The position numbers and the translations under genes are program-made. The notes below the pieces were generated by a model. That model was not told where the DNA came from. It did no database searches and worked only from the letters and a program-made list of their open reading frames with translations. A stretch of DNA of 58,918 bases, counting the filler, from a bacterium UBP13_UBA5359 (GTDB taxonomy: Bacteria > UBP13 > UBA5359): assembly GCA_002410925.1 (NCBI GenBank). It is 5 parts of 5 records of this genome, joined end to end, with 100 filler letters (N's around TTAATTAATTAA, not from the genome) between each part and the next. Parts side by side here need not be neighbours in the genome. Positions count along the whole stretch, not along the records: positions 1 to 23,760 come from DHPR01000038.1; 4 more parts are not named here. One strand, 5' to 3'. Positions 74-23,860 of the stretch are shown piece by piece. Numbering within the stretch: position 1 is the first letter of the stretch; each line of letters opens with the position of its first letter.

Positions 74-382
74 ATGGCAAAGCAGAAGATAAGAATACGT
101 CTTAAAGCGTATGATCACAAATTGCTCGATCAGTCGGCCAAAACTATAGTTGATACGGCAAAAAGAACGGGGGCGTCAGTGGCAGGGCCTGTGCCGCTGC
201 CGACAGAGAAGAACGTATACTGCGTTTTACGTTCGCCGCATGTCGATAAGGAATCCCGCGAGCACTTTGAAATGAGGATTCACAAGCGATTGATCGACAT
301 CTTGAGCCCGGCAGCTAAAACGGTTGATGCTTTGATGCGGTTGGATTTGCCGGCCGGTGTGGATATAGAGATTAAGCTCTGA
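74..382 (+). CDS. rpsJ: 30S ribosomal protein S10
   Basis: [11 protein letters not shown]...GPVPLPT...[15 protein letters not shown]. Confidence 0.99.
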
Positions 383-383
383 G

Positions 384-563
384 TCATTGCTTGGGCAGAG
401 AGGCGGTAGGGTTCAATGCCCGAAAGTTCAGGGTTCAAAGGTTGCCAGGCATGATGACCGGAGCGTTATCCTGAAAGGGTTAAGCTTTTCATCGACGTAG
501 CTTTTGAACTATGAGCGTTAATTCGGGACGTGGCCGATGTTATCCGCCTTCGGCCTGATATGA
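384..563 (+). ncRNA. rod-like structured intergenic RNA element (unassigned)
   Basis: Nested arms paired by eye: 391-396/553-558, 401-408/541-549, 419-424/522-527, 426-445/497-516, 453-457/489-493, 460-464/484-488; many G-U pairs. Confidence 0.6.
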
Positions 564-575
564 GAGGTTAAGATT

Positions 576-1199
576 ATGGCAATCGGAATTATAGGGAAAA
601 AATTGGGCATGACCCAGATTTTTAATAGTGACGGCAGGATTGTTCCGGTAACCGTTATTGAAGCGGGGCCATGTAAGGTGGTCCAGGTGAAAAACCGGGA
701 TAAGGACGGTTATTCGGCTATACAGCTTGGCTTTGGAGCAGCAAAGGAGCATAAAGTAATAAAGCCTTTGAAGGGGCATTATGCTAAGGTGAATCTGAAG
801 CCTATGCGTTATCTCAAAGAGTTCAGGCTGAAAGATGCATCATCCTATGAGAGTGGACAGGATATTACTCCATCCATTTTTAACGAGGGTGAGAAAGTCA
901 GTGTCACCGGTATCTCCAAAGGTAAAGGATTTGCCGGTAGCATAAAGCGCCATCACTTCAGGAGCGGGCCTACCAGCCATGGCTCCATGCACCATCGTAA
1001 GCCGGCCTCGGCTGGTGCTACAGACGCAGCGAGAGTCTTCAAGGGAAAGCGTAGTCCGGGACGTATGGGCGGCGATCAGGTAACGGTTAAAGGGCTGAAA
1101 GTAGTAAGAGCCGATGCAGAGCGTAATCTGTTACTGATAAAGGGTGCCGTCCCAGGACCGACGGGCGGATTGGTCGTAATCCGTAAAGCAAGTGAGTAG
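576..1199 (+). CDS. rplC: 50S ribosomal protein L3
   Basis: [26 protein letters not shown]. Confidence 0.99.
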
Positions 1200-1216
1200 T
1201 TTAGGAGGAAGCCGTT

Positions 1217-1843
1217 ATGCCTCAGGTTTCTGTATATGATATAAAAGGCGAAGTAGTCGGCACCAGAGATCTCAATGATGCGGTGTTTGGAGCGGAAGTG
1301 AATCGTAATGCTGTTCATAGCTCCGTTATCCGGCAGCTGGCAGGAAGACGCATCGGTAATGCCGATACCAAAACAAGAGGAGAAGTCAGTGGCGGCGGCA
1401 AGAAGCCGTGGCGCCAGAAAGGAACCGGAAGAGCGAGACATGGAAGCACCAGGTCTCCCATATGGACCGGTGGCGGTACTGTTTTTGGGCCACATCCTCG
1501 TTCCTATGCCAGGGGATTGCCCAAGAAAGTCCGGCGCTTGGCTTTGGTGTCAGCTCTCTCTGATAAGGCAAGCAAAGACGCTATAAAAATCATGGATGGG
1601 CTGGCTGTTGATAAGCCGAAGACAAGTACTATGGCGGCATTGATGGGTAAATTTGATGTAAGCGGCAATATACTGTTGGTGCTTGACGGGCGTGATGTCA
1701 ATATAGAGAAATCCGTTGCCAATATTCCTTGGGTAAAGTCCATTCTGGTTGATAATCTAAACGTCTTTGATATTCTGAACAGCGAATTATTGCTATTAAC
1801 CAAAGAGGCCGCCGACAGGCTGGAGGAGGCGTACGTATTATGA
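1217..1843 (+). CDS. rplD: 50S ribosomal protein L4
   Basis: [27 protein letters not shown]. Confidence 0.99.
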
Positions 1844-2127
1844 GGTCAGCCAGAGATATAATTATCAGGCCTATCGTGTCGGAAAAGAGTATGCGCGAGG
1901 CCGAAATTGGAAAATATATATTTGAAGTAGATAAAACGGCCAATAAAATAGAGATCAAGCAGGCCGTTGAAGAGATCTTTAAAGTCAAGGTTAAGAGCGT
2001 CAATACTATGACTATACCTGGCAAAATGAAGAGAGTCCGTTTTCAGGCCGGCAAGACGCCGGATTGGAAAAAGGCTGTTGTTACGCTGGTGAAAGGTCAT
2101 AAGATAGAGCTGTTTGAAGGCGCTTGA
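1840..2127 (+). CDS. rplW: 50S ribosomal protein L23
   Basis: [29 protein letters not shown]. Confidence 0.98.
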
Positions 2128-2141
2128 AAGGAGTTTAAGCG

Positions 2142-2966
2142 ATGGCCGTTAAGAAGTTCAAACCGACATCTCCCGGCAGAAGGTTCATGGTAGCGCCGGC
2201 TTATGATGATATTACGGTGGCCAATCCGGAGAAGTCGTTGACGGCTCCACTGAAGAAAACCGGCGGCAGAAATGCTCAAGGCAGGGTAACTGCAAGGCAC
2301 CGTGGGGGAGGCAATAAGCGCCTTTATCGTATAATTGATTTTAAGCGTGATAAGCAGGGCATACCTGCCAGGGTCGCTACGATTGAGTATGACCCGAACC
2401 GATCGGCTAGAATAGCGCTGCTCAATTATGCCGATGGTGAGAAGAGATATATCGTAGCGCCGCAGGGATTAAAGGTAGGAGCTACGGTTATTTCAGGCAC
2501 CGGCGTAGACATAAGCCCCGGAAACAGTATGCCGTTGAGATACATACCTTCCGGTAGCTTCATCCATAATATTGAGTTAAAGCCCGGACGCGGCGGGCAG
2601 ATAGTGCGTTCGGCCGGTGGATCAGCGCAGCTTCTGGCTAAAGAGGGGAATTATGCTCACCTTAGATTGCCGTCCGGTGAAGTACGCTTGGTACATCTTG
2701 ATTGTATGGCTACCGTAGGCCAGATAGGCAATATGGAGCATAGCCTGATATCGCACGGTAAAGCCGGTAAGAAGCGCTGGCTCGGGTCACGGCCTGCAGT
2801 GCGTGGCGTAGTGATGAATCCTAATGATCACCCGCATGGCGGCGGTGAAGGCAAGGCACCTATCGGGCGTAAAAGCCCTGTGTCGCCCTGGGGTAAGCCG
2901 ACACTGGGTTATAAAACCCGCAAAAGGAAGCCCAGTGACAGTATGATTGTCAGAAAGCGTAAATAA
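2142..2966 (+). CDS. rplB: 50S ribosomal protein L2
   Basis: [31 protein letters not shown]. Confidence 0.99.
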
Positions 2967-2978
2967 GGAGGCAGGGCT

Positions 2979-3263
2979 TTGAGTAGATCCTTGAAAAAGG
3001 GCCCTTATGTTGAAGAGAGCCTGATGAAAAAGATTGAAGAGATGAATACCAAGAATGAGAAGCGCCTTGTGAAGACCTGGTCGCGCCGTTCGACCGTATT
3101 CCCGCAGATGATTGGCCATACCATAGCCATTCATGATGGGCGAAAGCATGTGCCGATCTATATCTCCGATAATATGGTCGGTCATAAGCTGGGTGAATTT
3201 GTGCCGACACGCTTCTTCAGAGGTCATGGATCTCATACAGAGCGTTCAACGTCTTTGAAATAA
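2979..3263 (+). CDS. rpsS: 30S ribosomal protein S19 (TTG start)
   Basis: [30 protein letters not shown] upstream of the TTG. Confidence 0.99.
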
Positions 3264-3293
3264 CCGGCAGCATCTGCTTGCGAGCGGATGTCT

Positions 3294-3314
3294 GCTTGTA
3301 GCTTGCGGCTTGCG
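3294..3314 (+). repeat. heptamer tandem repeat GCTTGTA-GCTTGCG-GCTTGCG in the rpsS-rplV spacer
   Basis: Directly visible 7-nt periodicity. Confidence 0.6.
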
Positions 3315-3396
3315 ACTCACTCCGGATATGCGATCCGTGCTTAAGAGGGGTGATAAACGCTGACATCAAGTTTGAGTAAATGTGGAGGTAAGCGTT

Positions 3397-3729
3397 ATGG
3401 AGGCAAAGGCCAGCGCAAAATATGTGCGGATAGCTCCTAGAAAGGTCCGTTTTGTTATGGAACTTATCAGGGGGAAACGTGTTGATGATGCTATAAATAT
3501 TTTAAAATTCACGCCTAATATGGCTGCTAAGGCTATTGAAAAGGTAGTGCGATCGGCTGCTGCCAATGCCGAACATAATATGGCTGCTGATCGCGAACGT
3601 CTTTCGGTAAGTCGAGCCTTTGTCGATGAAGGTCCGACCATGAAGCGTTTCCTGCCCAGAGCGCACGGCAGAGCCAACAGAATAAGAAAGCGCACTAGCC
3701 ATATTACGGTGGTAGTGAGCGATAAATAA
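3397..3729 (+). CDS. rplV: 50S ribosomal protein L22
   Basis: [38 protein letters not shown] 3397 follows GGAGGT. Confidence 0.98.
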
Positions 3730-3848
3730 TCGGATAATGGCGGATGCGAATTGCAGCTATAGTATGAACTGAAGGCAAATAATGCAAATGTGGAGCATTA
3801 GTGAGAGACAAGCACCCGGGTTCCGCATTTGAAATGGAGGAAACGGAT

Positions 3849-4544
3849 TTGGGACAGAAGGTACACCCTTACGGGTTACGGCTGGGAATTATAAAGGGCT
3901 GGAAGAGCAAGTGGTTCGATAAGCGTAACTACACGGAGAATCTGCATGAGGATTTAAATCTGAGGAAATATATCAAGGAACGTCTCTATAATGCTGGTAT
4001 TGCTGATATATTGATCGAGCGCCCGGGTAATAAGCTTAGGATAACCATAATTGCGGCTAAGCCTGGTATGATAATCGGGCGTGGAGGCAAGGGTGTCGAT
4101 GATCTCAGGCTGGCGCTTGAGAAGCAGATAGGCAAGCCCGTTTCGCTTAATATTGAAGAGATAAAGAAGGCGGATCTCGATGCTCAATTGGTAGCTGAGA
4201 GCATTGCCGCACAGCTGGAAAAACGAACATCCTTCAGACGTGCTATGAAACAGGCTGTTTCAAGGGCCATGAAGATGGGAGCTAAGGGTGTAAAAGTGGG
4301 ATGTAGTGGTCGTTTGGGTGGTGCGGAAATGTCCCGCAGCGAGAGCTATAAAGAAGGTAAGATACCGCTGCATACTCTGCGCGCCGATATTGATTACGGT
4401 AACACAGAGGCAGTTACCACTTATGGTCAGATAGGAGTCAAGGTTTGGATATATAAGGGCGAGGTGCTGCCTGAATTGAAGAAGCCTGCAGGTCAGGTCG
4501 TCTCGGAACAGGTTCCGGCGGCTGTTTCTACCGGAAAGGAGTAA
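3849..4544 (+). CDS. rpsC: 30S ribosomal protein S3 (TTG start)
   Basis: [34 protein letters not shown] 3849 follows GGAGG, so the ORF-track upstream extension is not used. Confidence 0.98.
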
Positions 4545-4550
4545 GCGGTT

Positions 4551-4985
4551 ATGTTGATGCCCAAAAGAGTAAAGCATCGTAAGGTGCACCGCGGCAATAT
4601 GAGAGGCGATGCCAGGGGCGGGTTTGAAGTAGCCTTTGGTGATTATGGGATTAAGGCCCTTGAGCCTGGCTGGGTTACAAGCCAACAGATAGAGGCCGCA
4701 CGTATTGCAATCAACCGATATGTAAGGCGTGGTGGAAAGGTCTGGATAAGGATATTCCCAGATAAATCGGTAACGGCCAAGCCAGCTGAAACCCGTATGG
4801 GCAGCGGCAAGGGGGCGCCTGAATATTGGGTAGCCGTAGTAAGGCCCGGGCGCATACTCTTCGAAATATCCGGTGTGGAGCATGATACCGCCAAGGAAGC
4901 GATGCGCCTGGCATCGCACAAGCTTCCCATAAAGACGAAGTTTGTAGCCCGAGAAGAGATGGGTGGTGGTGTTAATGAAGCGTAG
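4551..4985 (+). CDS. rplP: 50S ribosomal protein L16
   Basis: [26 protein letters not shown]. Confidence 0.99.
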
Positions 4986-5169
4986 TCAATTTAAAAATCA
5001 GCTAAAGGATATGAATTTGCAGGAGTTGGCTCTTAAATTGGCTGAGGCCAAGGAAGAGCTCTTTAACCTCCGCTTCAAAAGAGCAACCGGTAATCTTGAG
5101 AATCCTTCACGTATGCGAATGGTGAAGAAGGAGATTGCCAGAATAATGACCGTAATGGCGGAAAAGTAA
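4975..5169 (+). CDS. rpmC: 50S ribosomal protein L29
   Basis: KEELFNLRF...LENP...[12 protein letters not shown] at 4975. Confidence 0.97.
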
Positions 5170-5242
5170 GATACCGGTTAGAATTAATGCTTGGAACATA
5201 CGGCAGTGACGGGTGTTCCGATACGATCAGGGGGATATTGGA

Positions 5243-5500
5243 ATGGAAAAGCGTGCGTTACGCAAAGTAAGAGAAGGTGTGGTAGTGAGTGATAAGATGG
5301 ATAAGACCATCACAGTAGCTGTTGAAACGCGCGTTCAGCACCCTCTCTACAAAAAATTCATTCGTAAAACTACGAAGTTTAAGGCGCATGATGAAGAGAA
5401 TCAGGCTCGCAATGGTGATGTTGTTCGCCTAATGGAAACCAGACCGTTAAGTAAGAACAAGAGATGGCGGTTGGTTCAGATTCTCAAGAAAGCAGAGTGA
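5243..5500 (+). CDS. rpsQ: 30S ribosomal protein S17
   Basis: [31 protein letters not shown]. Confidence 0.98.
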
Positions 5501-5512
5501 CGGAGGCAGGCA

Positions 5513-5884
5513 ATGATACAATCACAGAGCAGGTTAAAGGTTGCAGATAACTCTGGCGCACGAGTATTGATGTGTATACGGGTTCTAAAGGGTTCAGGCG
5601 CTCGTTATGCCGGAGTGGGCGATATAATTGTCGGAGTGGTAAAGCAAGCCATACCTAATGCCCCCGTAAAGAAGGGTGAAGTAGTCAAAGCTGTTGTGGT
5701 GCGTACCAATAAGGTTACCAAGCGTTCCGATGGTTCCTCCATACGATTTGATGATAATGCCGCGGTTATAATTAATGAGCAGAAGAACCCTCGTGGCACT
5801 CGTATCTTTGGGCCGGTAGCCAGAGAGCTCAGAGAAACGGGAGATTTCTCCAAGATTATATCTCTGGCACCTGAAGTTCTTTAA
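5513..5884 (+). CDS. rplN: 50S ribosomal protein L14
   Basis: [33 protein letters not shown]. Confidence 0.99.
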
Positions 5885-5886
5885 AA

Positions 5887-5977
5887 GGTGTAAGGGCAGT
5901 AGCTGTTTAGGCTGTTAGGAAAATAGTTTCGGTTCGATAATCCGTTAACGCCGCTAAACTGCTAAATGCCTACAGCC
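5887..5977 (+). ncRNA. rod-like hairpin with roughly 8-nt periodic arms in the rplN-rplX spacer
   Basis: TAGCTGTTTAG 5900-5910 pairs with CTAAACTGCTA 5954-5964; outer TGTA/TACA and GGCA/TGCC; inner GTTAG/TTAAC. Confidence 0.5.
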
Positions 5978-6005
5978 CGGAAAGCTGAAAAAAGAGGTGT
6001 AGAGA

Positions 6006-6338
6006 TTGGGCACAAATAACAAAGTGCATGTAAAGAAAGGCGACATGGTTGCAATCCTGGCAGGTAAAGATAAGGGTAAGCAGGGTAAAGTTACGCGTGT
6101 TCTGCCAAAGACCGGTAGAGTCATTGTCGAAGGTGTTAACCTGGTAAAGAAGCACCTCAAGGCCGGACCTAAAATACGCCAGGCCGGAATAGTTTCTCAG
6201 GAGGCGCCGTTGCATAGCAGCAATGTAATGCTGATATGCTCGAAATGCGGTGCTCCGTCAAGAGTCGGCTTTGCTGTAACCGATGACAAAAAAGCAAGAG
6301 TTTGCAGAAAGTGCGGCGAGATAGCCGATAAGGTCTGA
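6006..6338 (+). CDS. rplX: 50S ribosomal protein L24 (TTG start; CxxC..CxxC C-terminus)
   Basis: [20 protein letters not shown] motif, EAPLHSSNV. Confidence 0.98.
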
Positions 6339-6364
6339 GCAGGCGGATATGCGGGGAGGAAGAT

Positions 6365-6907
6365 ATGTCTAGATTAAAAGATAAGCATTCAAAGGAAATC
6401 ATACCTGCCATGATGGAACAATTCGGATTTAAAAATGTCATGCAGGTTCCAAAGGTAACAAAGATAGTTGTCAATATGGGTGTTGGTGACGCTATTCTGG
6501 ATCCCAAGCTTCTCGATGCGGCTGTGAATGATCTGGCGCTTATAACCGGGCAGCGGCCGTTGGTTACCAAAGCCAAGAAATCCATTGCCAGTTTTAAAAT
6601 TCGTGAGGGCATGTCTATTGGCTGTAAAGTGACGCTGCGCGGCGAAACCATGTATAGCTTTCTTGATAAATTAATAAACGCAGTTTTACCACGCGTGCGC
6701 GATTTTAGCGGGGTTTCTCCCAAGTCATTTGACGGCAGAGGGAATTATGCTCTCGGCCTGAAGGAGCAATTGATATTCCCTGAGATAGATTATGACAAGG
6801 TAGTCAAAATAAGGGGAATGGATATAATTATCGTTACCAGTAGTGATAATGATGACCAAGCTCGAGCATTGCTTGCAAAGATGGGTATGCCTTTCAAGGA
6901 AAGCTGA
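6365..6907 (+). CDS. rplE: 50S ribosomal protein L5
   Basis: [31 protein letters not shown]. Confidence 0.99.
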
Positions 6908-6920
6908 GGAGGGGATTACA

Positions 6921-8990
6921 ACGGAACGCTTTGATATCGATCATCTGAGAAATATTGCTGTTGTCGGCCATAGTGGATGCGGTAAAACAACTTTGGTGGA
7001 AGCGTTGTTATACAGCTTCGGAATGGTCGATAGATTAGGCAAGGTGGACGAGGGCAGTACAGCTTCCGATTATGATCCGGAAGAGGTAAAGCGTCGCATC
7101 TCGATTAATACCACGATAGAGCCTGTTATCTGGAATGGCCGGAAGGCCAATATTCTTGATACTCCGGGGTATGCAGATTTTATTGGTGAAGTAAAGAGTG
7201 CTCTTCGTGTAGTGGAAGGCGCGTTGGTTACAGTTTGTGCTGTTTCAGGCGTTGAGGTAGGCACTGAAAATGTCTGGTCGCTGTCAGCTGATAGAGGGAT
7301 GGCCAGAGCCTTCTTCGTTAATAAAATGGATCGTGAAAATGCGAATTTTACCGAAACCCTTTCCCAGCTCAAGGATGGATTTGGCAATAATGTCGTGCCG
7401 CTGCAGCTGCCGATTGGATCGGAGCAAGATTTTAAAGGTATTGTAGATCTGCTGCAGATGAAGGCAATTCTGTACACCGATGAAAAGAATTATACTATTA
7501 CGGATATTCCTTCTGAGCTGATGGAAGAGGCAACAGCCAATAGGGAGAAAGTGATAGAGCTGGCTACGGAAGGTGATGATGACCTTCTGATGAAGTATCT
7601 GGAGGGCGAGGCTCTAACCGCTGATGAAGTTATTTACGGGATGAAGCGTGCTATCAGCGCTGGAAATGTATTTCCGGTTTTCTGCGGGTCAGCTGCAACG
7701 GGTGTAGGTATTCGGTCACTGATGGAAGCGCTGATTGAGTGGATGCCCGCACCGCTGGCCGCGGTTACAGGGGCTGATCCTAAAACCGGCGATGCAGTTG
7801 AAATGAATGCTGATAAGCTGGCGGCGCTGGTATATAAAACTATGGCTGACCCTTATGTCGGTAAGCTCACATATTTTAGAGTCTTTACCGGTATATTGAA
7901 ATCCGATTCTCATGTTTATAATCCTCTTCATGAACATGCCGATGAGCGCGTAGGCCAGGTGTTTTACACCATCGGCAAGAAGCAAGAGGCTACAGATGGC
8001 GTGGGCGCCGGTGATTTCGGAGCGGTAGCAAAGCTGCAGGTAACGGCAACCGGTAATACACTATGTGATAAGGATAAGCAAATCGTAATTCCGGGCATAA
8101 GCTTTCCGAGTCCCATAATGTCTGCCGCTGTTTATCCCAAGACAAAAGGCGATGAAGATAAGCTCGGGGCAGCTCTGCAGCGTATGGTAGATGAAGATCC
8201 TACGCTACATGTTCGGCGAGATACGGAGACAGGGGAAACGTTGCTCTCCGGCATGGGTGAAACACATATTGATATAGCCGTTGATCGTTTAAAACGTAAG
8301 TTCGGCGTTGATGTGGCAGTAGCTGTGCCGAAGATACCGTATCGTGAAACGGTAACTGCACAGGCCAAATCGGAATATAAGCACAAGAAACAATCCGGTG
8401 GACGCGGACAATATGGACATTGTGTTATAGAGATCGAGCCTTTGCCGCGTGGCGAAGGGTTTGAGTTTGTTGATAAGATATTTGGCGGTGCTGTACCCAG
8501 GCAGTATATTCCTGCAGTGGAGAAGGGTGTGCGTGAGGCTATGCAGGAAGGCATACTGGCTGGATATAATGTTGTGGATGTCAGGGTGACGCTGGTCGAC
8601 GGATCCTTTCATCCGGTTGATTCATCGGAGATGGCTTTTAAGATTGCCGGTTCTATGGCCTTCAAAAAAGGGTTTGCCGATGCCGGGCCTGTTCTGCTGG
8701 AGCCGGTCATGAGTGTTGAAGTAAATGTGCCGGATGCCAATACCGGTGATACGATCAGCGATCTGAATACCAAGCGAGGCCGCATACTCGGTATGGAACC
8801 GCAAGGTAGCGGCCGTACTGTAGTAAAGGCTATAGTGCCTCTGGCTGAAATGCAAAGATATGGAATTGACTTGACCTCAATAACACAGGGACGCGGTGCT
8901 TTTACCATGAAGGAGTCGCATTTCGAAGAGGTACCGGCGCATACGGCCGAGCGAATCATTGCTGAAGCCGCAAAAGAGAAGAAGGAATAG
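6921..8990 (+). CDS. elongation factor G paralog (EF-G II type); probable non-canonical ACG start
   Basis: RNIAVVGHSGCGKTT (G1), RRISI (switch I), DTPGYADF (G3), NKMD (G4), YRETV, KKQSGGRGQYG, DGSFHPVDSSEMAF, LLEPVM; start placed at ACG 6921, 8 nt after GGAGG 6908-6912. Confidence 0.95.
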   Translation, partial: TERFDIDHLRNIAVVGHSGCGKTTLVEALLYSFGMVDRLGKVDEGSTASDYDPEEVKRRISINTTIEPVIWNGRKANILDTPGYADFIGEVKSALRVVEGALVTVCAVSGVEVGTENVWSLSADRGMARAFFVNKMDRENANFTETLSQLKDGFGNNVVPLQLPIGSEQDFKGIVDLLQMKAILYTDEKNYTITDIPSELMEEATANREKVIELATEGDDDLLMKYLEGEALTADEVIYGMKRAISAGNVFPVFCGSAATGVGIRSLMEALIEWMPAPLAAVTGADPKTGDAVEMNADKLAALVYKTMADPYVGKLTYFRVFTGILKSDSHVYNPLHEHADERVGQVFYTIGKKQEATDGVGAGDFGAVAKLQVTATGNTLCDKDKQIVIPGISFPSPIMSAAVYPKTKGDEDKLGAALQRMVDEDPTLHVRRDTETGETLLSGMGETHIDIAVDRLKRKFGVDVAVAVPKIPYRETVTAQAKSEYKHKKQSGGRGQYGHCVIEIEPLPRGEGFEFVDKIFGGAVPRQYIPAVEKGVREAMQEGILAGYNVVDVRVTLVDGSFHPVDSSEMAFKIAGSMAFKKGFADAGPVLLEPVMSVEVNVPDANTGDTISDLNTKRGRILGMEPQGSGRTVVKAIVPLAEMQRYGIDLTSITQGRGAFTMKESHFEEVPAHTAERIIAEAAKEKKE

Positions 8991-9022
8991 TTGTTTAGGG
9001 GAGGGGCGTTCAGAAGGTTGAT

Positions 9023-9043
9023 CCCCTAACTCCTGACTTCTGA
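9023..9043 (+). repeat. heptamer repeats CCCCTAA-CTCCTGA-CTTCTGA with complementary heptamers upstream
   Basis: TTAGGGG 8995-9001 and TCAGAAG 9010-9016 are exact reverse complements of two of the units. Confidence 0.6.
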
Positions 9044-9060
9044 TAAGATGGAGGTAAGAA

Positions 9061-9246
9061 GTGGCTAAGAAGAGTCTGATAAATAAGGCGAATATGCAGC
9101 CGAAGTTTTCTGTAAGGCAACACAGCCGCTGCCGCATATGCGGGCGACCGCGTGGTTTTATGCGTAGGTTCGGTATGTGCCGGATCTGTTTCAGAACGCT
9201 GTCACATCGCGGCATGATACCCGGTATTACCAAGTCAAGCTGGTAA
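9061..9246 (+). CDS. rpsN: 30S ribosomal protein S14, zinc-binding short form (GTG start)
   Basis: 61 aa, RCRICGRPR...MCRICFR...PGITKSSW. Confidence 0.98.
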
Positions 9247-9292
9247 CCGTAAGATTATGTAATAGTGCAAGTGTGAGTGGAGGGTGATAATT

Positions 9293-9685
9293 GTGACCGA
9301 TCCTATAGCTGATATGCTGACAAGGATACGTAATGCCAGCAGGGCCAATCATGATGTTGTAGAGGTTCCTGCATCAAAGATAAAGATGGCGCTTGCGGAT
9401 ATATTGAAGGAAGAGGGATTCATTAGTCGTTTTGAGGTCAGCAAGCGTAAGCCTCAAGATGTTATTAGAATTCACCTGAAATACGGACCCAAGCGTGAGG
9501 CCGTTATAACCGGTATTACCAGGGTTAGCAAGCCCGGTATAAGGGTATATGCCCGTCATACAGAGATACCTAAAGTTCTTAATGGACTTGGAGTGGCTGT
9601 TTTGTCTACCTCCAAGGGTATTCTTACCGACAAAGCTGCCAGAGCAGCCGGTGTCGGCGGCGAAGTTCTTTGTTATGTCTGGTAG
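9293..9685 (+). CDS. rpsH: 30S ribosomal protein S8 (GTG start; 9284 is an alternative)
   Basis: [31 protein letters not shown]. Confidence 0.98.
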
Positions 9686-9701
9686 AATGGAGGTATGACC
9701 G

Positions 9702-10247
9702 ATGTCAAGAATTGGAAGAATGCCTATCCCCATTCCGACAGGAGTCGGGATTAAGGTTGAGAATAGCACAGTGACCATTGAGGGGCCTAAGGGTAAATTG
9801 ACACAACGTTTGAACCCCGATATGGAGATTGTTGTGGAAGATGGTGCTGCCCGGGTAAAAAGGCCGACTGATAGTAAGCTGCACAGAGCCTTACATGGCT
9901 TAAGCAGGTCTTTGATTGCCAATATGGTCGAGGGTGTGACCAATGGTTATACCAAGCGGTTGGTTATTACCGGTGTGGGCTATCGTGTACAAAAGCAGGG
10001 TGATGACCTGATATTACAGGTGGGCTTTTCGCATCCTGTTGAGGTCGCGCCGATGGAAGGTATTGAGCTGAATGTAGAAGGAAATAACCGGATAATAATT
10101 CAAGGTATTGATAAGCAGCGAGTTGGAGAGATGGCTGCCAATATCAGGGCCATATTGCCGCCTGAGCCGTATAAGGGCAAGGGTATAGCTTACGAGGGCG
10201 AGCGTATCCGCAGGAAGGCCGGCAAAGCCGGCAAGATCGGTAAATAG
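9702..10247 (+). CDS. rplF: 50S ribosomal protein L6
   Basis: MSRIGRMPI, GVGYR, PEPYKGKGI. Confidence 0.99.
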   Translation: MSRIGRMPIPIPTGVGIKVENSTVTIEGPKGKLTQRLNPDMEIVVEDGAARVKRPTDSKLHRALHGLSRSLIANMVEGVTNGYTKRLVITGVGYRVQKQGDDLILQVGFSHPVEVAPMEGIELNVEGNNRIIIQGIDKQRVGEMAANIRAILPPEPYKGKGIAYEGERIRRKAGKAGKIGK

Positions 10248-10269
10248 GCTGATTTGAAGGAGTTAGGCG

Positions 10270-10638
10270 ATGGGTAATACAGCAAAAAAAGTGGTAGCCA
10301 GGCAAAAAAGGCATTTCCGGGTTAGAAACAAGGTATCCGGTACGCCACAGCGGCCAAGGCTTAATGTTTTTAGAAGTCTATGCCATATATATGCACAGGT
10401 TATAGATGATCAGGCGGGTAATACGTTGTGTGCAGCTTCTACGATAGATCCGGAAATCAAGGGCAGCATTACGAACGGCGGAAATATCCAGGCTGCCGCT
10501 GCGGTAGGCAATCTTATTGCCAAGCGTTGCCTTGATGCCGGAGTAAGTGAAGTAGTTTTTGATAGAGGCGGCTATATCTATCATGGCCGCGTGAAGGCTC
10601 TGGCTGAAGCTGCACGCGAAGCCGGATTGAAGTTCTAG
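10270..10638 (+). CDS. rplR: 50S ribosomal protein L18
   Basis: [32 protein letters not shown]. Confidence 0.99.
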
Positions 10639-10653
10639 CATGGAGGAGAAGTA

Positions 10654-11187
10654 ATGGCTAAGATAGATCCTAATACACTTGTGCTTACCGAAAAGGTAGT
10701 CAAGATCAACAGGGTTGCCAAAGTACTTAAAGGCGGCCGTAAGTTTAGCTTCAGCGCGCTGGTGGTTGTGGGTGACGGTCAGGGGCATGTGGGTGCAGGA
10801 CTGGGAAAGGCCGGTGAAGTACCGGAGGCGATTCGTAAGGGTATTGAAGATGCCAAAAAGAATCTTATAAAAATCCCGCTTGTGGAAACGACGATTCCTC
10901 ACGAAATCAGTTGGACGTTAGGAGCCGGCAAGGTTATATTGAAGCCTGCTGCTCCGGGAACAGGCGTTATTGCCGGCGGGCCTGTGCGTGCCGTTCTTGA
11001 GGCTGCCGGAGTCAAGGATATCCTGACTAAGTCTCTGGGAACAGCCAATGCTATCAATGTTGTAAGGACTGTTATGGATGCCTTGAAGCATATGCGTTCT
11101 GTAGAGGATGTTGCCAGGATACGCGGCAAGAAAGTCGAAGACTTGGCTGATCGGAGGAACGGAGGTAAATTAGAATGGCGAGGCTGA
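10654..11187 (+). CDS. rpsE: 30S ribosomal protein S5
   Basis: [36 protein letters not shown]. Confidence 0.99.
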
Positions 11188-11357
11188 AGGTTACTCTGAA
11201 AAAGAGCGCTATTGGAGCGCCTAAAGATCACAAAGCCACTGTAGCAGCGCTCGGCTTGCGTAAGTTGAATGCAGTAAGATACCATAATGATCTTCCACAG
11301 GTGATGGGGATGATCAACAAGGTACGCTATATGCTGGAAGTGGAAGAGGAAGGCTGA
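11175..11357 (+). CDS. rpmD: 50S ribosomal protein L30
   Basis: [11 protein letters not shown]...[10 protein letters not shown]. Confidence 0.97.
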
Positions 11358-11402
11358 GAATAGATTTAGCGGTTAATTGTATCTGGATATCGTAAATTAT
11401 TA

Positions 11403-11411
11403 TGGTAAAAT
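11403..11411 (+). promoter_or_regulatory. candidate extended -10 internal promoter upstream of rplO
   Basis: TG-g-TAAAAT in an AT-rich spacer; no clear -35 at 17 bp. Confidence 0.35.
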
Positions 11412-11477
11412 AGAAAGGCTGATAATTGCGATACAGCCTGAGGTTATTTAACGTTCAGTTGAAAGTGGGTGCAAGCA

Positions 11478-11915
11478 TTGGAATTACATGATCTGCGTCC
11501 GACAAAGGGCGCGAGACATAGTATAAAGCGTGTCGGGCGTGGCACAGGTTCCGGTCACGGGAAAACATCCTGTCGCGGGCAGAAGGGACAGAAAGCACGC
11601 GGCAGTGTGCGTCCGGGTTTTGAAGGTGGGCAGACGCCTCTCTACAGACGTCTTCCTAAATTAAGAGGATTTACTAATATATTTTCGGTCGATTATGCTG
11701 AGATAAATGTGGTGGATCTTAACCGCTTTGATAATGGTACGGAGATATCGCCGGAATTACTATTGAGCCTGGGAATGGTTAAAGATATGAAAGACGGGCT
11801 TAAAGTTCTGGGCGATGGTGCTTTGGAGCGTAACCTCACCGTAAAGGCAAATCGTTTTACAAAGTCCGCTGTGGCGAAGATTGAGTCTGCCGGCGGCAAG
11901 GCAGAGGTGATATAG
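11478..11915 (+). CDS. rplO: 50S ribosomal protein L15 (TTG 11478 or GTG 11469 start)
   Basis: [28 protein letters not shown]. Confidence 0.98.
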
Positions 11916-13193
11916 ATGCTGGCCTCTCTTTTGAGTGCCTTCAAGATTCCCGAGCTGCGTAAGCGCATATTATATGTTTTCGGGATGATAGGAATCTTTG
12001 TCCTGGGATTACATATAGCAGTTCCAGGAATTGACAGAGTAGCCATGGAGAAGCTCTTCTCCAGCGGTGGTCTTCTGGGTTTAATGGACGTATTTTCCGG
12101 CGGTGCCTTGCGCAAGTTTTCGATTTTTGCTATGGGTATAGCGCCGTACATTAACGCCTCAATTATTATGCAGCTTCTTACAATTGCTGTGCCCTCCCTG
12201 GAGGAGATGTCCAAAGAGGGCGAATCCGGCCGTAAGAAGATAACGCAATATACCCGCTATCTGGCGGTGGTGTTGGCCTTTTTCCAGGGCGGGGGCATAT
12301 GCCTGTGGCTCTCTAAATCTAATATCCTTTCTGTTTCGACAGTGACCTTCCCTATGATTGTGATTACTCTGGTAGCAGGAACAGCCTTTCTTATGTGGCT
12401 GGGTGAACAGATCACGGAGAAGGGGATTGGTAATGGTATTTCGCTCTTGATCTTCACCGGTATCCTGGCTAGAATGCCTAATGACATCAGTCAGGTTGCC
12501 CAAAGTATACGAGCGCATGCCGTGACCTTCTTTGATGTTCTGCTCTTTCTGGCAATTTTTGTTGCCATGGTAGTGGGTATAATATTTATTCAGCAGGGGC
12601 AACGCCGCATACCCGTTCAATATGCCAAGCGTGTGGTTGGTCGCAGAATGTACGGCGGCCAGAGCACTTTCATACCATTGAAGGTTAATCAATCGGGGGT
12701 TATTCCTATAATCTTTGCGGTCTCGGTGCTTCTCTTCCCTGCTACTGTCGCTCAGTTTGCGCCACAGGTTGGAACATTTGGCAGCGTAATGGCCTGGATC
12801 AAGAATATATTTTCACCCGGGTCCTTTTGGTACACCTTCTTTTATGCAGTATTGGTAGTGCTCTTTACTTTCTTTTACACTGCGGTTATCTTTAATCCGG
12901 TTGAGGTCGCTGATAACATGAAGAAATACGGCGGCTTTGTTCCCGGTATAAGACCCGGTCGACCGACGGCAGAGTATCTTAATAAAGTAATTACAAGAAT
13001 TACTATGGCTGGAGCGTTTTTTCTGGCTTTTATAGCCGTTGTGCCTACATATCTTATGAATCTGACGCATATACAGATATACTACATGTATGGGGGCACT
13101 TCGCTTCTGATTATGGTTGGTGTGGCATTAGAAACCATGCAGCAGATAGAGGCTCATCTGCTTATGCGTAACTATGAGGGCTTCATAAAATAG
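11916..13193 (+). CDS. secY: preprotein translocase subunit SecY
   Basis: SIFAMGIAPYINASIIMQLL, WLGEQIT.KGIGNGISL, GVIPIIFA, PGIRPG, GGTSLLI. Confidence 0.99.
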   Translation: MLASLLSAFKIPELRKRILYVFGMIGIFVLGLHIAVPGIDRVAMEKLFSSGGLLGLMDVFSGGALRKFSIFAMGIAPYINASIIMQLLTIAVPSLEEMSKEGESGRKKITQYTRYLAVVLAFFQGGGICLWLSKSNILSVSTVTFPMIVITLVAGTAFLMWLGEQITEKGIGNGISLLIFTGILARMPNDISQVAQSIRAHAVTFFDVLLFLAIFVAMVVGIIFIQQGQRRIPVQYAKRVVGRRMYGGQSTFIPLKVNQSGVIPIIFAVSVLLFPATVAQFAPQVGTFGSVMAWIKNIFSPGSFWYTFFYAVLVVLFTFFYTAVIFNPVEVADNMKKYGGFVPGIRPGRPTAEYLNKVITRITMAGAFFLAFIAVVPTYLMNLTHIQIYYMYGGTSLLIMVGVALETMQQIEAHLLMRNYEGFIK

Positions 13194-13227
13194 ATGCGTA
13201 ATTATATTCGCATTTGGCAGGAGTGCA

Positions 13228-13905
13228 ATGAGAATAATATTGTTAGGCGCACCCGGTTCCGGCAAAGGTACCGTGGCCAGGGTGCTGGTTGAGAGAACCG
13301 GCACGCCACACATCTCCACAGGGGATATGCTGCGTGCCGCCCAGGCCGCTAAAACTTCGCTGGGGGCCAGTGCCCGTGAGTATATGGAGAGCGGGCGGCT
13401 TGTGCCTGATGATATTGTAATCGGGCTGATACGTAATAGGCTCGGTCAATCCGATTGTCTGTCAAAGGGGTATATACTTGATGGATTTCCAAGAACTCTC
13501 TCACAGGCTGCAGAGCTGGGAGTGGTGCTGGCGGACTTGGAATCGGATGTTCAGGCTGTCTTCGACCTGCAAGTCAATCGGCAGCTGCTGATAAAACGGC
13601 TTTCCGGGCGGCGTATCTGCAAGAGTTGTGATGCTATATATCATGTGGTTAATATGCCGCCTAAAAAAGAAGGGATCTGCGATATTTGTGGCGGTGAGCT
13701 GTATCAGAGGGCTGATGACCAGCCGGCCACTGTCGAAAACAGACTGGATGTTTATGAGGTGCAGACAAAGCCTCTGATTGAATACTACAGAAACATGGGT
13801 CTGCTCTATCCCGTTGAAGGAGATAAAGGAGTGCAGGCGGTTTTTGAAATGATAATACATACCCTTGATAATATCCGGAAGCCGGCTCGTGACCAGGCAC
13901 AATGA
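13228..13905 (+). CDS. adk: adenylate kinase (zinc-lid type)
   Basis: GAPGSGKGT, HISTGDMLR, LDGFPR, CKSC..CDIC lid. Confidence 0.98.
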   Translation: MRIILLGAPGSGKGTVARVLVERTGTPHISTGDMLRAAQAAKTSLGASAREYMESGRLVPDDIVIGLIRNRLGQSDCLSKGYILDGFPRTLSQAAELGVVLADLESDVQAVFDLQVNRQLLIKRLSGRRICKSCDAIYHVVNMPPKKEGICDICGGELYQRADDQPATVENRLDVYEVQTKPLIEYYRNMGLLYPVEGDKGVQAVFEMIIHTLDNIRKPARDQAQ

Positions 13906-14648
13906 TTATACGGAAGAAGAAAGCCGAAATCGAAAAGATGCGCCGTGCAGGGCAAATTGTTGCCGCTACACTGCAAAAAATCAGTGCCGCCGTATACCCG
14001 GGTGTAATGACTATAGAGCTGGATACACTGGCTGAGTCCAGTCTTAGAGCGGCTGGAGCTATACCGGCATTTAAAGGATATCGCGGGTATCCCGCTACAT
14101 TATGTACGTCAGTAAACGATGAAGTTGTGCATGGTATACCTGGGAAGAGAGTTCTTTGTGAAGGTGATATCGTCAGCCTTGATCTGGGAGCAAAATTTGA
14201 CGGATTTTATGCTGATGCAACGGTGACCTGCCCTGTTGGAGTCATATCGGTAGAAGCAGAAAGGCTGATAAGGGTTACTCGTGAAGCCTTATATAAAGGG
14301 ATTGAAAAGGCAACTCCCGGCAGGCGGTTGGGTGATGTAGGAGCGGCCATACAGCAATATGCAGAGATGAATGGCTATGGAGTGGTAAGAGATCTTGTCG
14401 GTCACGGTATAGGGCGTTCTCTGCACGAAGACCCGCAGGTGCCTAATTACGGTATGCCCGGGCATGGAACGTTGCTTAAGGAAGGTATGACGCTGGCTAT
14501 AGAGCCGATGATTAATGCAGGCGGTTATGGTATACGCCAGCTTGCTGATGGCTGGACTATTGTAACTGCGGATCATAGCCTGTCGGCGCATTATGAACAT
14601 ACTGTTGCGATCATCGATGACGGCGCAACGATATTGACGGAATTGTGA
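13902..14648 (+). CDS. map: methionine aminopeptidase type I
   Basis: SVNDEVVHGIP, GHGIG..LHEDP, IEPM, SAHYEHT. Confidence 0.98.
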   Translation: MIIRKKKAEIEKMRRAGQIVAATLQKISAAVYPGVMTIELDTLAESSLRAAGAIPAFKGYRGYPATLCTSVNDEVVHGIPGKRVLCEGDIVSLDLGAKFDGFYADATVTCPVGVISVEAERLIRVTREALYKGIEKATPGRRLGDVGAAIQQYAEMNGYGVVRDLVGHGIGRSLHEDPQVPNYGMPGHGTLLKEGMTLAIEPMINAGGYGIRQLADGWTIVTADHSLSAHYEHTVAIIDDGATILTEL

Positions 14649-14678
14649 GCTTGAATAGAGTTTGGAGGTAGAGGCTTA

Positions 14679-14900
14679 ATGTCCAAAAAAGAGGGAGTTA
14701 TCGAGATGGAGGGCAAGATCATAGAAACATTGCCCAATGCCATGTTCCGGGTTATGCTGGATAATGGCCATAATATACTGGCACATGTCTCAGGCAAGAT
14801 CCGGATGCATTTCATCCGCATACTTCCGGGTGACAGGGTAAAGGTCGAGCTGTCACCGTACGATTTAAACCGCGGCAGGATTGTATATAGATTCAAGTAA
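14679..14900 (+). CDS. infA: translation initiation factor IF-1
   Basis: [30 protein letters not shown]. Confidence 0.99.
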
Positions 14901-23760: not shown

Positions 23761-23860
23761 NNNNNNNNNNNNNNNNNNNNNNNNNNNNNNNNNNNNNNNN
23801 NNNNTTAATTAATTAANNNNNNNNNNNNNNNNNNNNNNNNNNNNNNNNNNNNNNNNNNNN
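23761..23860. other. artificial contig linker
   Basis: N-run with TTAATTAATTAA (six-frame stops) at 23805-23816. Confidence 0.98.

Follow-up and report, generated by a model that had tools for sequence, protein, structure and literature searches.

Why should a gene for a second elongation factor G (EF-G) lie inside an operon of ribosomal-protein genes, between those for L5 and S14? This is the question raised by positions 6921–8990 of a 58,918-nucleotide stretch of DNA, called here the window, from the bacterium UBP13_UBA5359 (assembly GCA_002410925.1), where an EF-G paralog of the EFG II type separates rplE from rpsN in the spc operon. We found that this gene has long resided in the spc operon under selection, alongside the canonical EF-G of the str operon, and that such a placement is a lineage trait of the Armatimonadota which is common to the phylum of the window. 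The proposed coding sequence is on the plus strand and comprises 690 codons, including an ACG at the start position, plus the stop.

An EFG II gene beside a canonical fusA

The encoded protein matches the Pfam domains GTP_EFTU, EF-G_D2, EFG_III, EFG_IV, and EFG_C (PF00009, PF22042/PF03144, PF14492, PF03764, and PF00679), spread over residues 11–680, with EFG_IV reaching 172.8 bits; together with the NCBIfam matches, this agrees with the first-pass annotation of a five-domain EF-G-like gene between rplE and rpsN. The paralog also matches solved EF-G structures over its full length (E 7e-194), and we therefore take its fold as settled. Its translated sequence reads GHSGCGKTT with Leu next in G1 or the P-loop (6966–6992), RRISI with Ser for the Thr of RGITI in G2 or switch I (7092–7106), DTPGY with Tyr for the catalytic His in G3 or switch II (7158–7172), and NKMD, thus keeping guanine specificity, in G4 (7320–7331), besides CGSA in G5 and the two domain IV loops KQSGGRGQYG (8388–8417, within the EFG_IV match) and HPVDSSEMAF (8610–8639). 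Compared with fusA of the same genome, the G1 context is VGHSGCGKTTL in the paralog vs. AAHIDAGKTTT in fusA, and none of the canonical EFG I traits (AHIDAGKTT, RGITI, DTPGH, and location in the str operon) is found in the former.

In the accessible text of the work that defined EFG II as a subfamily (Margus, Remm and Tenson 2011, PMC3150367), G1 is GhxxxGKT, with Gly for the Ala before the His and Leu for the Thr after GKTT, G2 is xxxSx (RxxSI in Clostridia and r/kxxSI in Chloroflexi), G3 is DxPG, G4 and G5 are conserved, and the gene is found only together with a str-operon EFG I gene. The paralog has all of these G1–G5 features (the RxxSI, the DxPG without His, the NKxD, and the GSA included) and the companion gene as well, and it stands nearest to the Clostridia and Chloroflexi sub-subgroups. 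The motif and loop readings of the first-pass annotation were correct, although not its presentation of the GTPase motifs as a divergence peculiar to this gene, because they had been published as EFG II hallmarks. What differs from the published EFG II genes is the location in the spc operon and the ACG at the start; the only conserved context given in that same accessible text is the str operon, for EFG I, and it is unlikely that the 2011 genome set contained Armatimonadota.

The top NCBIfam model for the paralog is NF009381 (947 bits), and its score with the EF-G equivalog TIGR00484 (730.3 bits, vs. 1154.7 bits for fusA) exceeds the cut-off of 659.4, which is why pipelines label the gene “elongation factor G”. 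It stays below the cut-offs of the “EF-G-like protein EF-G2” equivalog NF009377 (677.8 bits, cut-off 890) and of NF058620, the model of the Bacteroidota EF-G2 that includes the Bacteroides thetaiotaomicron protein (606 bits in two stretches, cut-off 1000). A tetracycline ribosomal protection protein was ruled out by NF012153 (352.2 bits vs. a cut-off of 775). The nearest relatives, with 55–60% identity and the same motifs, come from metagenome-assembled genomes of Armatimonadota, Bacillota, Chloroflexota, and Actinomycetota, and among solved structures the paralog scores 649 bits with Thermus thermophilus EF-G, 500 bits with 9k0z, and 492 bits with 1wdt. Judging from its sequence, the sub-group of the paralog has diverged least among the kinds of EFG II, and the studied EFG II proteins are distant functional guides only.

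The EF-G phylogeny was run with 138 and with 52 sequences, leaving out partial proteins of less than 640 aa and L118 (same place as L072), and in both trees the non-str paralogs split from the str-operon EF-Gs with a support of 100. The paralog groups with 125 other non-str paralogs, including those of Clostridia-class species such as Carboxydothermus, in trees that contain neither an author-labelled EFG II sequence nor 1wdt; the opposite clade, also with a support of 100, has 12 rows, namely 11 str-operon EF-Gs plus L018. The switch II His is present in only 2 of the 126 non-str rows (L018 and L028), all others having Y, F, D, E, S, or Q there. By its five domains and its motifs, the predicted product is shown to belong to the EFG II subfamily, in agreement with the identity first given to it.

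The genome of the window (G000) contains two full-length EF-G genes, and the second is the canonical fusA, found after rpsL-rpsG on contig C8, with AHIDAGKTT, RGITI, and DTPGH and an identity of 46% to the paralog. One contig of the sister species G001 carries rpsL-rpsG-fusA-tuf-rpsJ...rplE-EFGII-rpsN-rpsH, so the canonical fusA that the first-pass annotation had proposed to look for before tuf is indeed in the str operon, with tuf directly next to it in G001. In G000, C8 (G000:C8:1-92) ends just past fusA and C11 begins at rpsJ, and tuf is missing from the assembly at this break; G001 has a tuf of 400 aa at the corresponding place. The canonical EF-G of G000 is 68–70% identical to copies from Bacillota (e.g., Moorella) and some Armatimonadota.

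The spc position and its history

Positions 1–23760 of the window are a single contig (C11) of a 2.25 Mb genome that is 98% complete, and the nearest run of N begins at 23761, as expected from the earlier statement that no assembly gap lies close by. The S10–spc cluster surrounding the paralog (74–14900), with an NCBIfam equivalog match for each gene and one strand (plus) throughout, has the order rpsJ-rplC-rplD-rplW-rplB-rpsS-rplV-rpsC-rplP-rpmC-rpsQ-rplN-rplX-rplE-[EFG II]-rpsN-rpsH-rplF-rplR-rpsE-rpmD-rplO-secY-adk-map-infA. Directly upstream is rplE (6365–6907; NF000585, 296.6 bits, cut-off 186), 13 nt away, and directly downstream, after a spacer of 70 nt (8991–9060) with its own GGAGG at 9052–9056, is rpsN for a type-Z S14 protein (9061–9246; NF005974, 106.8 bits, cut-off 77). 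The remainder of the window (23761–58918) consists of contigs C16, C17, C18, and C21 joined by N runs and is not contiguous with the EF-G locus; C16 itself also contains N runs.

In the species collection surveyed, the phylum of this organism has three species, all of one genus, and the L24-L5-EFG-S14-S8 layout is present in all three, and their EF-G proteins are 93% and 84% identical. In these three species, diverged by synonymous distances (dS) of 0.4–1.3, the frame of 690 codons is unbroken, and the ratio of nonsynonymous to synonymous substitution (dN/dS) among them is 0.063–0.088 for the paralog vs. 0.029–0.039 for fusA; the paralog is under purifying selection. Contigs from elsewhere contain the same junctions: X3, from another run, is identical over 6608–7328 and 8882–9220, and X4, from a different study, over 6827–7005 and 8204–9199, so that each spans both junctions with zero differences, as had been asked of reads in the first place; a further contig, X6, is identical over 8976–9126. 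A misassembly is therefore ruled out by the layout shared by the three species and by the bridging contigs of an independent study.

Outside the genus, neither L5 nor S14 was found beside the EF-G match in any of 27 loci from scattered bacterial genomes. A scan with one genome per species gave, among its best 80 loci, only two with this arrangement, both from Armatimonadota, the other 78 lying outside this cluster; 16 of these 80 loci have less than 4 kb of upstream DNA, seven of them less than 600 bases, and to that extent are weak evidence. When the other-lineage loci are combined, the position lacks an EF-G in 105 of 107, the two exceptions again being Armatimonadota.

In the Armatimonadota themselves, where all our counts are from samples, a close homolog (E up to 1e-225) occurs in 41 of 151 sampled species, and 29 of the best 30 loci have the L24-L5-EFG-S14-S8 order. 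For an even draw, we took 29 rplE loci, leaving out G042, a centre chosen for having the trait, and G044, which yielded no locus. An EF-G gene directly follows rplE in 14 of these 29 species; in 7 it lies instead between rpsQ (S17) and rplN (L14), at the S10/spc boundary; and 4 have plain rplE-rpsN. With G042 included, the EFG II motif set is present, by a simple pattern search, in 14 of the 15 loci with EF-G after rplE. The spc placement is thus a lineage trait of the Armatimonadota that the phylum of the window has in common with them, and the synteny survey of rplE-X-rpsN proposed in the first-pass annotation revealed an arrangement that is by no means unique. The accompanying view that EFG II genes lie outside ribosomal-protein operons is supported, for this cluster, by the loci sampled from other lineages and fails for the Armatimonadota, where the inside position is common.

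The seven copies in the rpsQ-rplN slot (L184–L190, in G050, G066, G060, G057, G055, G071, and G069) carry DxPGY in five cases, and DTPGG together with a Gln in the P-loop in two. The latter are L184 (3919–5949) and L185 (2826–4856), where Gln replaces the P-loop His (IGQGGSGKTTL), and whose GTPase centre is, by its predicted sequence, more degenerate than that of the other EFG II genes. In the other 4 of the 29 loci (L191–L194; G068, G054, G051, and G067), the cluster ends after rplE, with no rpsN, rpsH, or EF-G found within about 6 kb downstream, and the rplE-rpsN junction therefore seems to be a recurrent breakpoint.

Did the gene enter the spc operon once or twice? The spc-located genes of the Armatimonadota form one clade with a support of 99. 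L126 (G092:C67:8895-13967) is placed within this clade but has neither L5 nor S14 as a neighbour, pointing to a secondary relocation. The genus of the window falls in a poorly resolved group with this clade, with a clade of non-spc Armatimonadota and Sysuimicrobiota, and with Chloroflexota. Constraining all spc-located genes to a single clade lowers the log-likelihood by 4.1 units, and the approximately unbiased test does not reject this constraint (p 0.44), so the trees would be compatible with a single insertion into the spc operon.

Start codon and expression signals

The paralog has a single open frame from 6843 to the stop at 8988–8990, and its start is the oddity peculiar to this genus. 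The stop of rplE is TGA (6905–6907), directly followed by GGAGGGG, and an AGGAGG (6907–6912) shares the final base of that stop, as the first-pass annotation had seen in placing a Shine-Dalgarno sequence right after rplE; this element is identical in the three species of the genus. From the rplE stop up to the P-loop, none of the three has an in-frame ATG, GTG, or TTG. In 121 EFG II relatives, the homologous start position, 20 codons back from GKT, is occupied by ATG, GTG, or TTG in 107; in the three species of this genus it is ACG (6921–6923), and the remaining 11 exceptions have a canonical start at most 3 codons away, leaving the genus of the window as the only one without it. This ACG begins 14 nt past the rplE stop, is situated 8 nt after the AGGAGG, and is present in the three assemblies as well as in contigs X3 and X4. 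The start assigned earlier at 6921 was therefore right in position, matching the start of the relatives, but passed over the fact that the codon there is the non-canonical ACG, with no ATG, GTG, or TTG available.

Two other starts have to be weighed. An ATT at 6915 ranks below ACG 6921, being only 2 nt after the AGGAGG, with the ACG at the homologous position. The public annotation (P0002 and P0003) begins at ATG 6849, giving a protein of 713 aa from a codon inside rplE; no Shine-Dalgarno sequence was found at this ATG, and in the overlap 6 of 9 substitutions are on third positions of rplE, which the EF-G frame would read as second positions, making this ATG an unlikely start. Probably, then, the public annotation is wrong twice, in the plain name “elongation factor G” and in the extension into rplE. 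An L5–EFG fusion through a +1 frameshift was also rejected, given that the upstream extension of the open EF-G frame is just 24 codons, a length that chance can explain, and that the relatives have separate genes, about 4–170 nt apart.

How rare such a start is can be seen in E. coli, where infC, a translation-factor gene (IF3) just as the paralog is, has a conserved non-canonical AUU start. Regulation of infC by its own product acts through discrimination of that start codon. According to the accessible part of a survey with E. coli reporters (10.1101/063800), codons of this kind initiate at 0.1–1% of AUG, the only confirmed cases in E. coli are infC and pcnB, and ACG belongs to an even weaker class than the AUU of infC. 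A start as weak as ACG argues against a simple stoichiometric co-production with the ribosomal proteins. In the mostly open literature searched, including main-text passages of Margus 2011 and Atkinson 2015, we found no description of an EF-G gene within the S10/spc operons or with an ACG start.

The codon adaptation index of the paralog, with 21 ribosomal-protein genes as the reference set, is 0.788, i.e., the 98.8th percentile of 1086 open reading frames of at least 300 aa, practically that of fusA (0.787); SecY, Adk, and Map of the same cluster are at the 33rd–61st percentile, in a genome-wide spread that is narrow (median 0.74, 99th percentile 0.79). Promoter-like sites (24 vs. 22.0 expected) and terminator-like sites (13 vs. 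12.8 expected) are not above chance; the scan reported no terminator-like site in the 8991–9060 spacer, and Rfam gave no match in 1–23760 at E up to 1. A G/C-rich hairpin at 8996–9028, present in G000 and G001 and absent from the shorter spacer of G002, was dropped as a functional element, its fold z-score of −0.99 being no better than that of shuffled sequence.

What the paralog may do on the ribosome

We give about equal weight to belief and to doubt in the following reading: the paralog is an EFG II protein that works as a slow or low-GTPase translocase, or as a ribosome-occupying factor, made from the spc mRNA. The gene would be transcribed on the polycistronic spc messenger and translated from ACG 6921, probably with the aid of coupling to rplE termination, and the weak start would keep its output well under that of the neighbouring ribosomal proteins. 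The retained P-loop GK[TS], NKMD, GSA, and both domain IV tip loops predict GTP binding and an EF-G-like docking in the factor site and the A site, and poor GTP hydrolysis, slow or absent, is expected from the Tyr in place of the switch II His and from the changes in the P-loop and switch I. Such a protein could move ribosomes slowly and at low cost, or simply occupy them. In the available portion of a preprint on Mycobacterium smegmatis (bioRxiv 10.64898/2026.05.25.727771), the H88Y change in EF-G1 nearly abolishes its GTPase, and EF-G2 carries Tyr98 for His88. The EF-G2 of B. thetaiotaomicron is, as cited in the accessible text of PMC12775393, a paralog reported to carry out translocation without hydrolysing GTP.

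Several points weigh against this slow-translocase reading. Both the co-transcription and the biochemical function are deduced from DNA and protein sequence, and the true start may be any of three candidates (ACG 6921, ATT 6915, or ATG 6849). Codon adaptation in the top percentile is hard to reconcile with an initiation codon whose expected strength is about 100-fold below that of AUG. The paralog could also have a transcript of its own, from a promoter-like TAGTCA-16-TATAAT at 6801–6828 (10/12 match, the best of the first 16 kb), located inside the 3′ end of rplE and about 90 nt before the EF-G start. In addition, the characterized EF-G2 proteins are distant from the paralog (492–500 bits) and differ from one another, so that a transfer of function would be unsafe: in the accessible text of the M. 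smegmatis preprint (bioRxiv 10.64898/2026.05.25.727771), GTPase and translocation activities are reported for the T. thermophilus EF-G2, both are lacking in that of M. smegmatis, and translocation by the Bacteroides protein is slow.

An unlikely alternative is a stress or hibernation-type factor resembling M. smegmatis EF-G2 (PDB 9k0z/9k10), one that would bind the non-rotated 70S ribosome, perform neither translocation nor recycling, and modulate translation when resources are low. Both are second EF-Gs beside a canonical one with Tyr for the switch II His, and the weak ACG would hold the basal level low. Nevertheless, in what is accessible on it, the M. smegmatis protein has lost the P-loop His, residues of switch I, and both Asn and Met from NKMD and is not reported in a ribosomal-protein operon, whereas the paralog keeps or only mildly changes these residues, with the NKMD, the P-loop His, and both domain IV loops retained, and scores much higher with canonical EF-G (649 bits) than with 9k0z (500 bits). 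Its location in a ribosomal-protein operon linked to growth rate, and a codon adaptation at the 99th percentile, do not suggest a stress-only gene either.

Somewhat less likely still is a fully active second EF-G, with a His-independent GTP hydrolysis, sharing translocation and recycling dependent on ribosome recycling factor with fusA. The five-domain structural prototype of EFG II and source of the residue numbering in Margus 2011, T. thermophilus EF-G-2 (PDB 1wdt/2dy1), is reported in the accessible sources to have ribosome-dependent GTPase and translocation activities, although it gives only 492 bits with the paralog vs. 649 for EF-G-1; Borrelia burgdorferi and Pseudomonas aeruginosa are described there as dividing elongation and recycling between two EF-Gs; and the nucleotide-binding motifs and domain III–V surfaces of the paralog are well conserved, with high codon adaptation. 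On the other hand, the near abolition of GTPase by H88Y in a canonical EF-G speaks against this, and the known division-of-labour pairs belong to other subfamilies (spdEFG and EFG I duplicates) in the accessible text of Margus 2011.

A GTPase of ribosome assembly or quality control, placed in the operon for synthesis alongside new subunits, is very unlikely: what would favour it is only where the gene lies, flanked by the genes for L5 and S14 here or, in other Armatimonadota, by those for S17 and L14, but the literature examined describes no EF-G family member in such a role, and conservation of the tip loops of domain IV suggests action at the decoding centre of the mature ribosome. Finally, that the lack of ATG, GTG, and TTG between the rplE stop and the P-loop marks a decaying gene without a start codon, or an assembly artefact, is scarcely credible for a frame that is intact in three species at such a low dN/dS, whose junctions and ACG were reproduced in the contigs of another study, and whose layout is repeated in dozens of Armatimonadota.

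The three studied EFG II proteins differ in behaviour and have been tied, in the accessible literature, to slow translocation or to stress. The B. thetaiotaomicron EF-G2 is starvation-induced and is not known to be encoded in a ribosomal-protein operon. That a whole phylum-level lineage keeps EFG II in the S10–spc cluster, in either of two fixed positions and with a codon adaptation like that of fusA, suggests a constitutive, ribosome-linked job. These organisms would be a natural system for asking whether translation routinely uses a factor that does not hydrolyse GTP, and with ACG conserved at its start site the gene is one of the rare bacterial translation-factor genes with a non-canonical initiation codon. 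In its boldest form, which we regard as doubtful, the idea would be that in the Armatimonadota and in the small sister-like phylum of the window EFG II, rather than serving as an accessory under stress, is a hard-wired part of translation, produced from the messenger of the ribosomal proteins, that moves or parks ribosomes without GTP cost, its dose being set in the genus of the window by the conserved ACG through termination-reinitiation after rplE; if true, this would be a new way, based on the start codon, of setting how much of a translation factor is made per ribosome.

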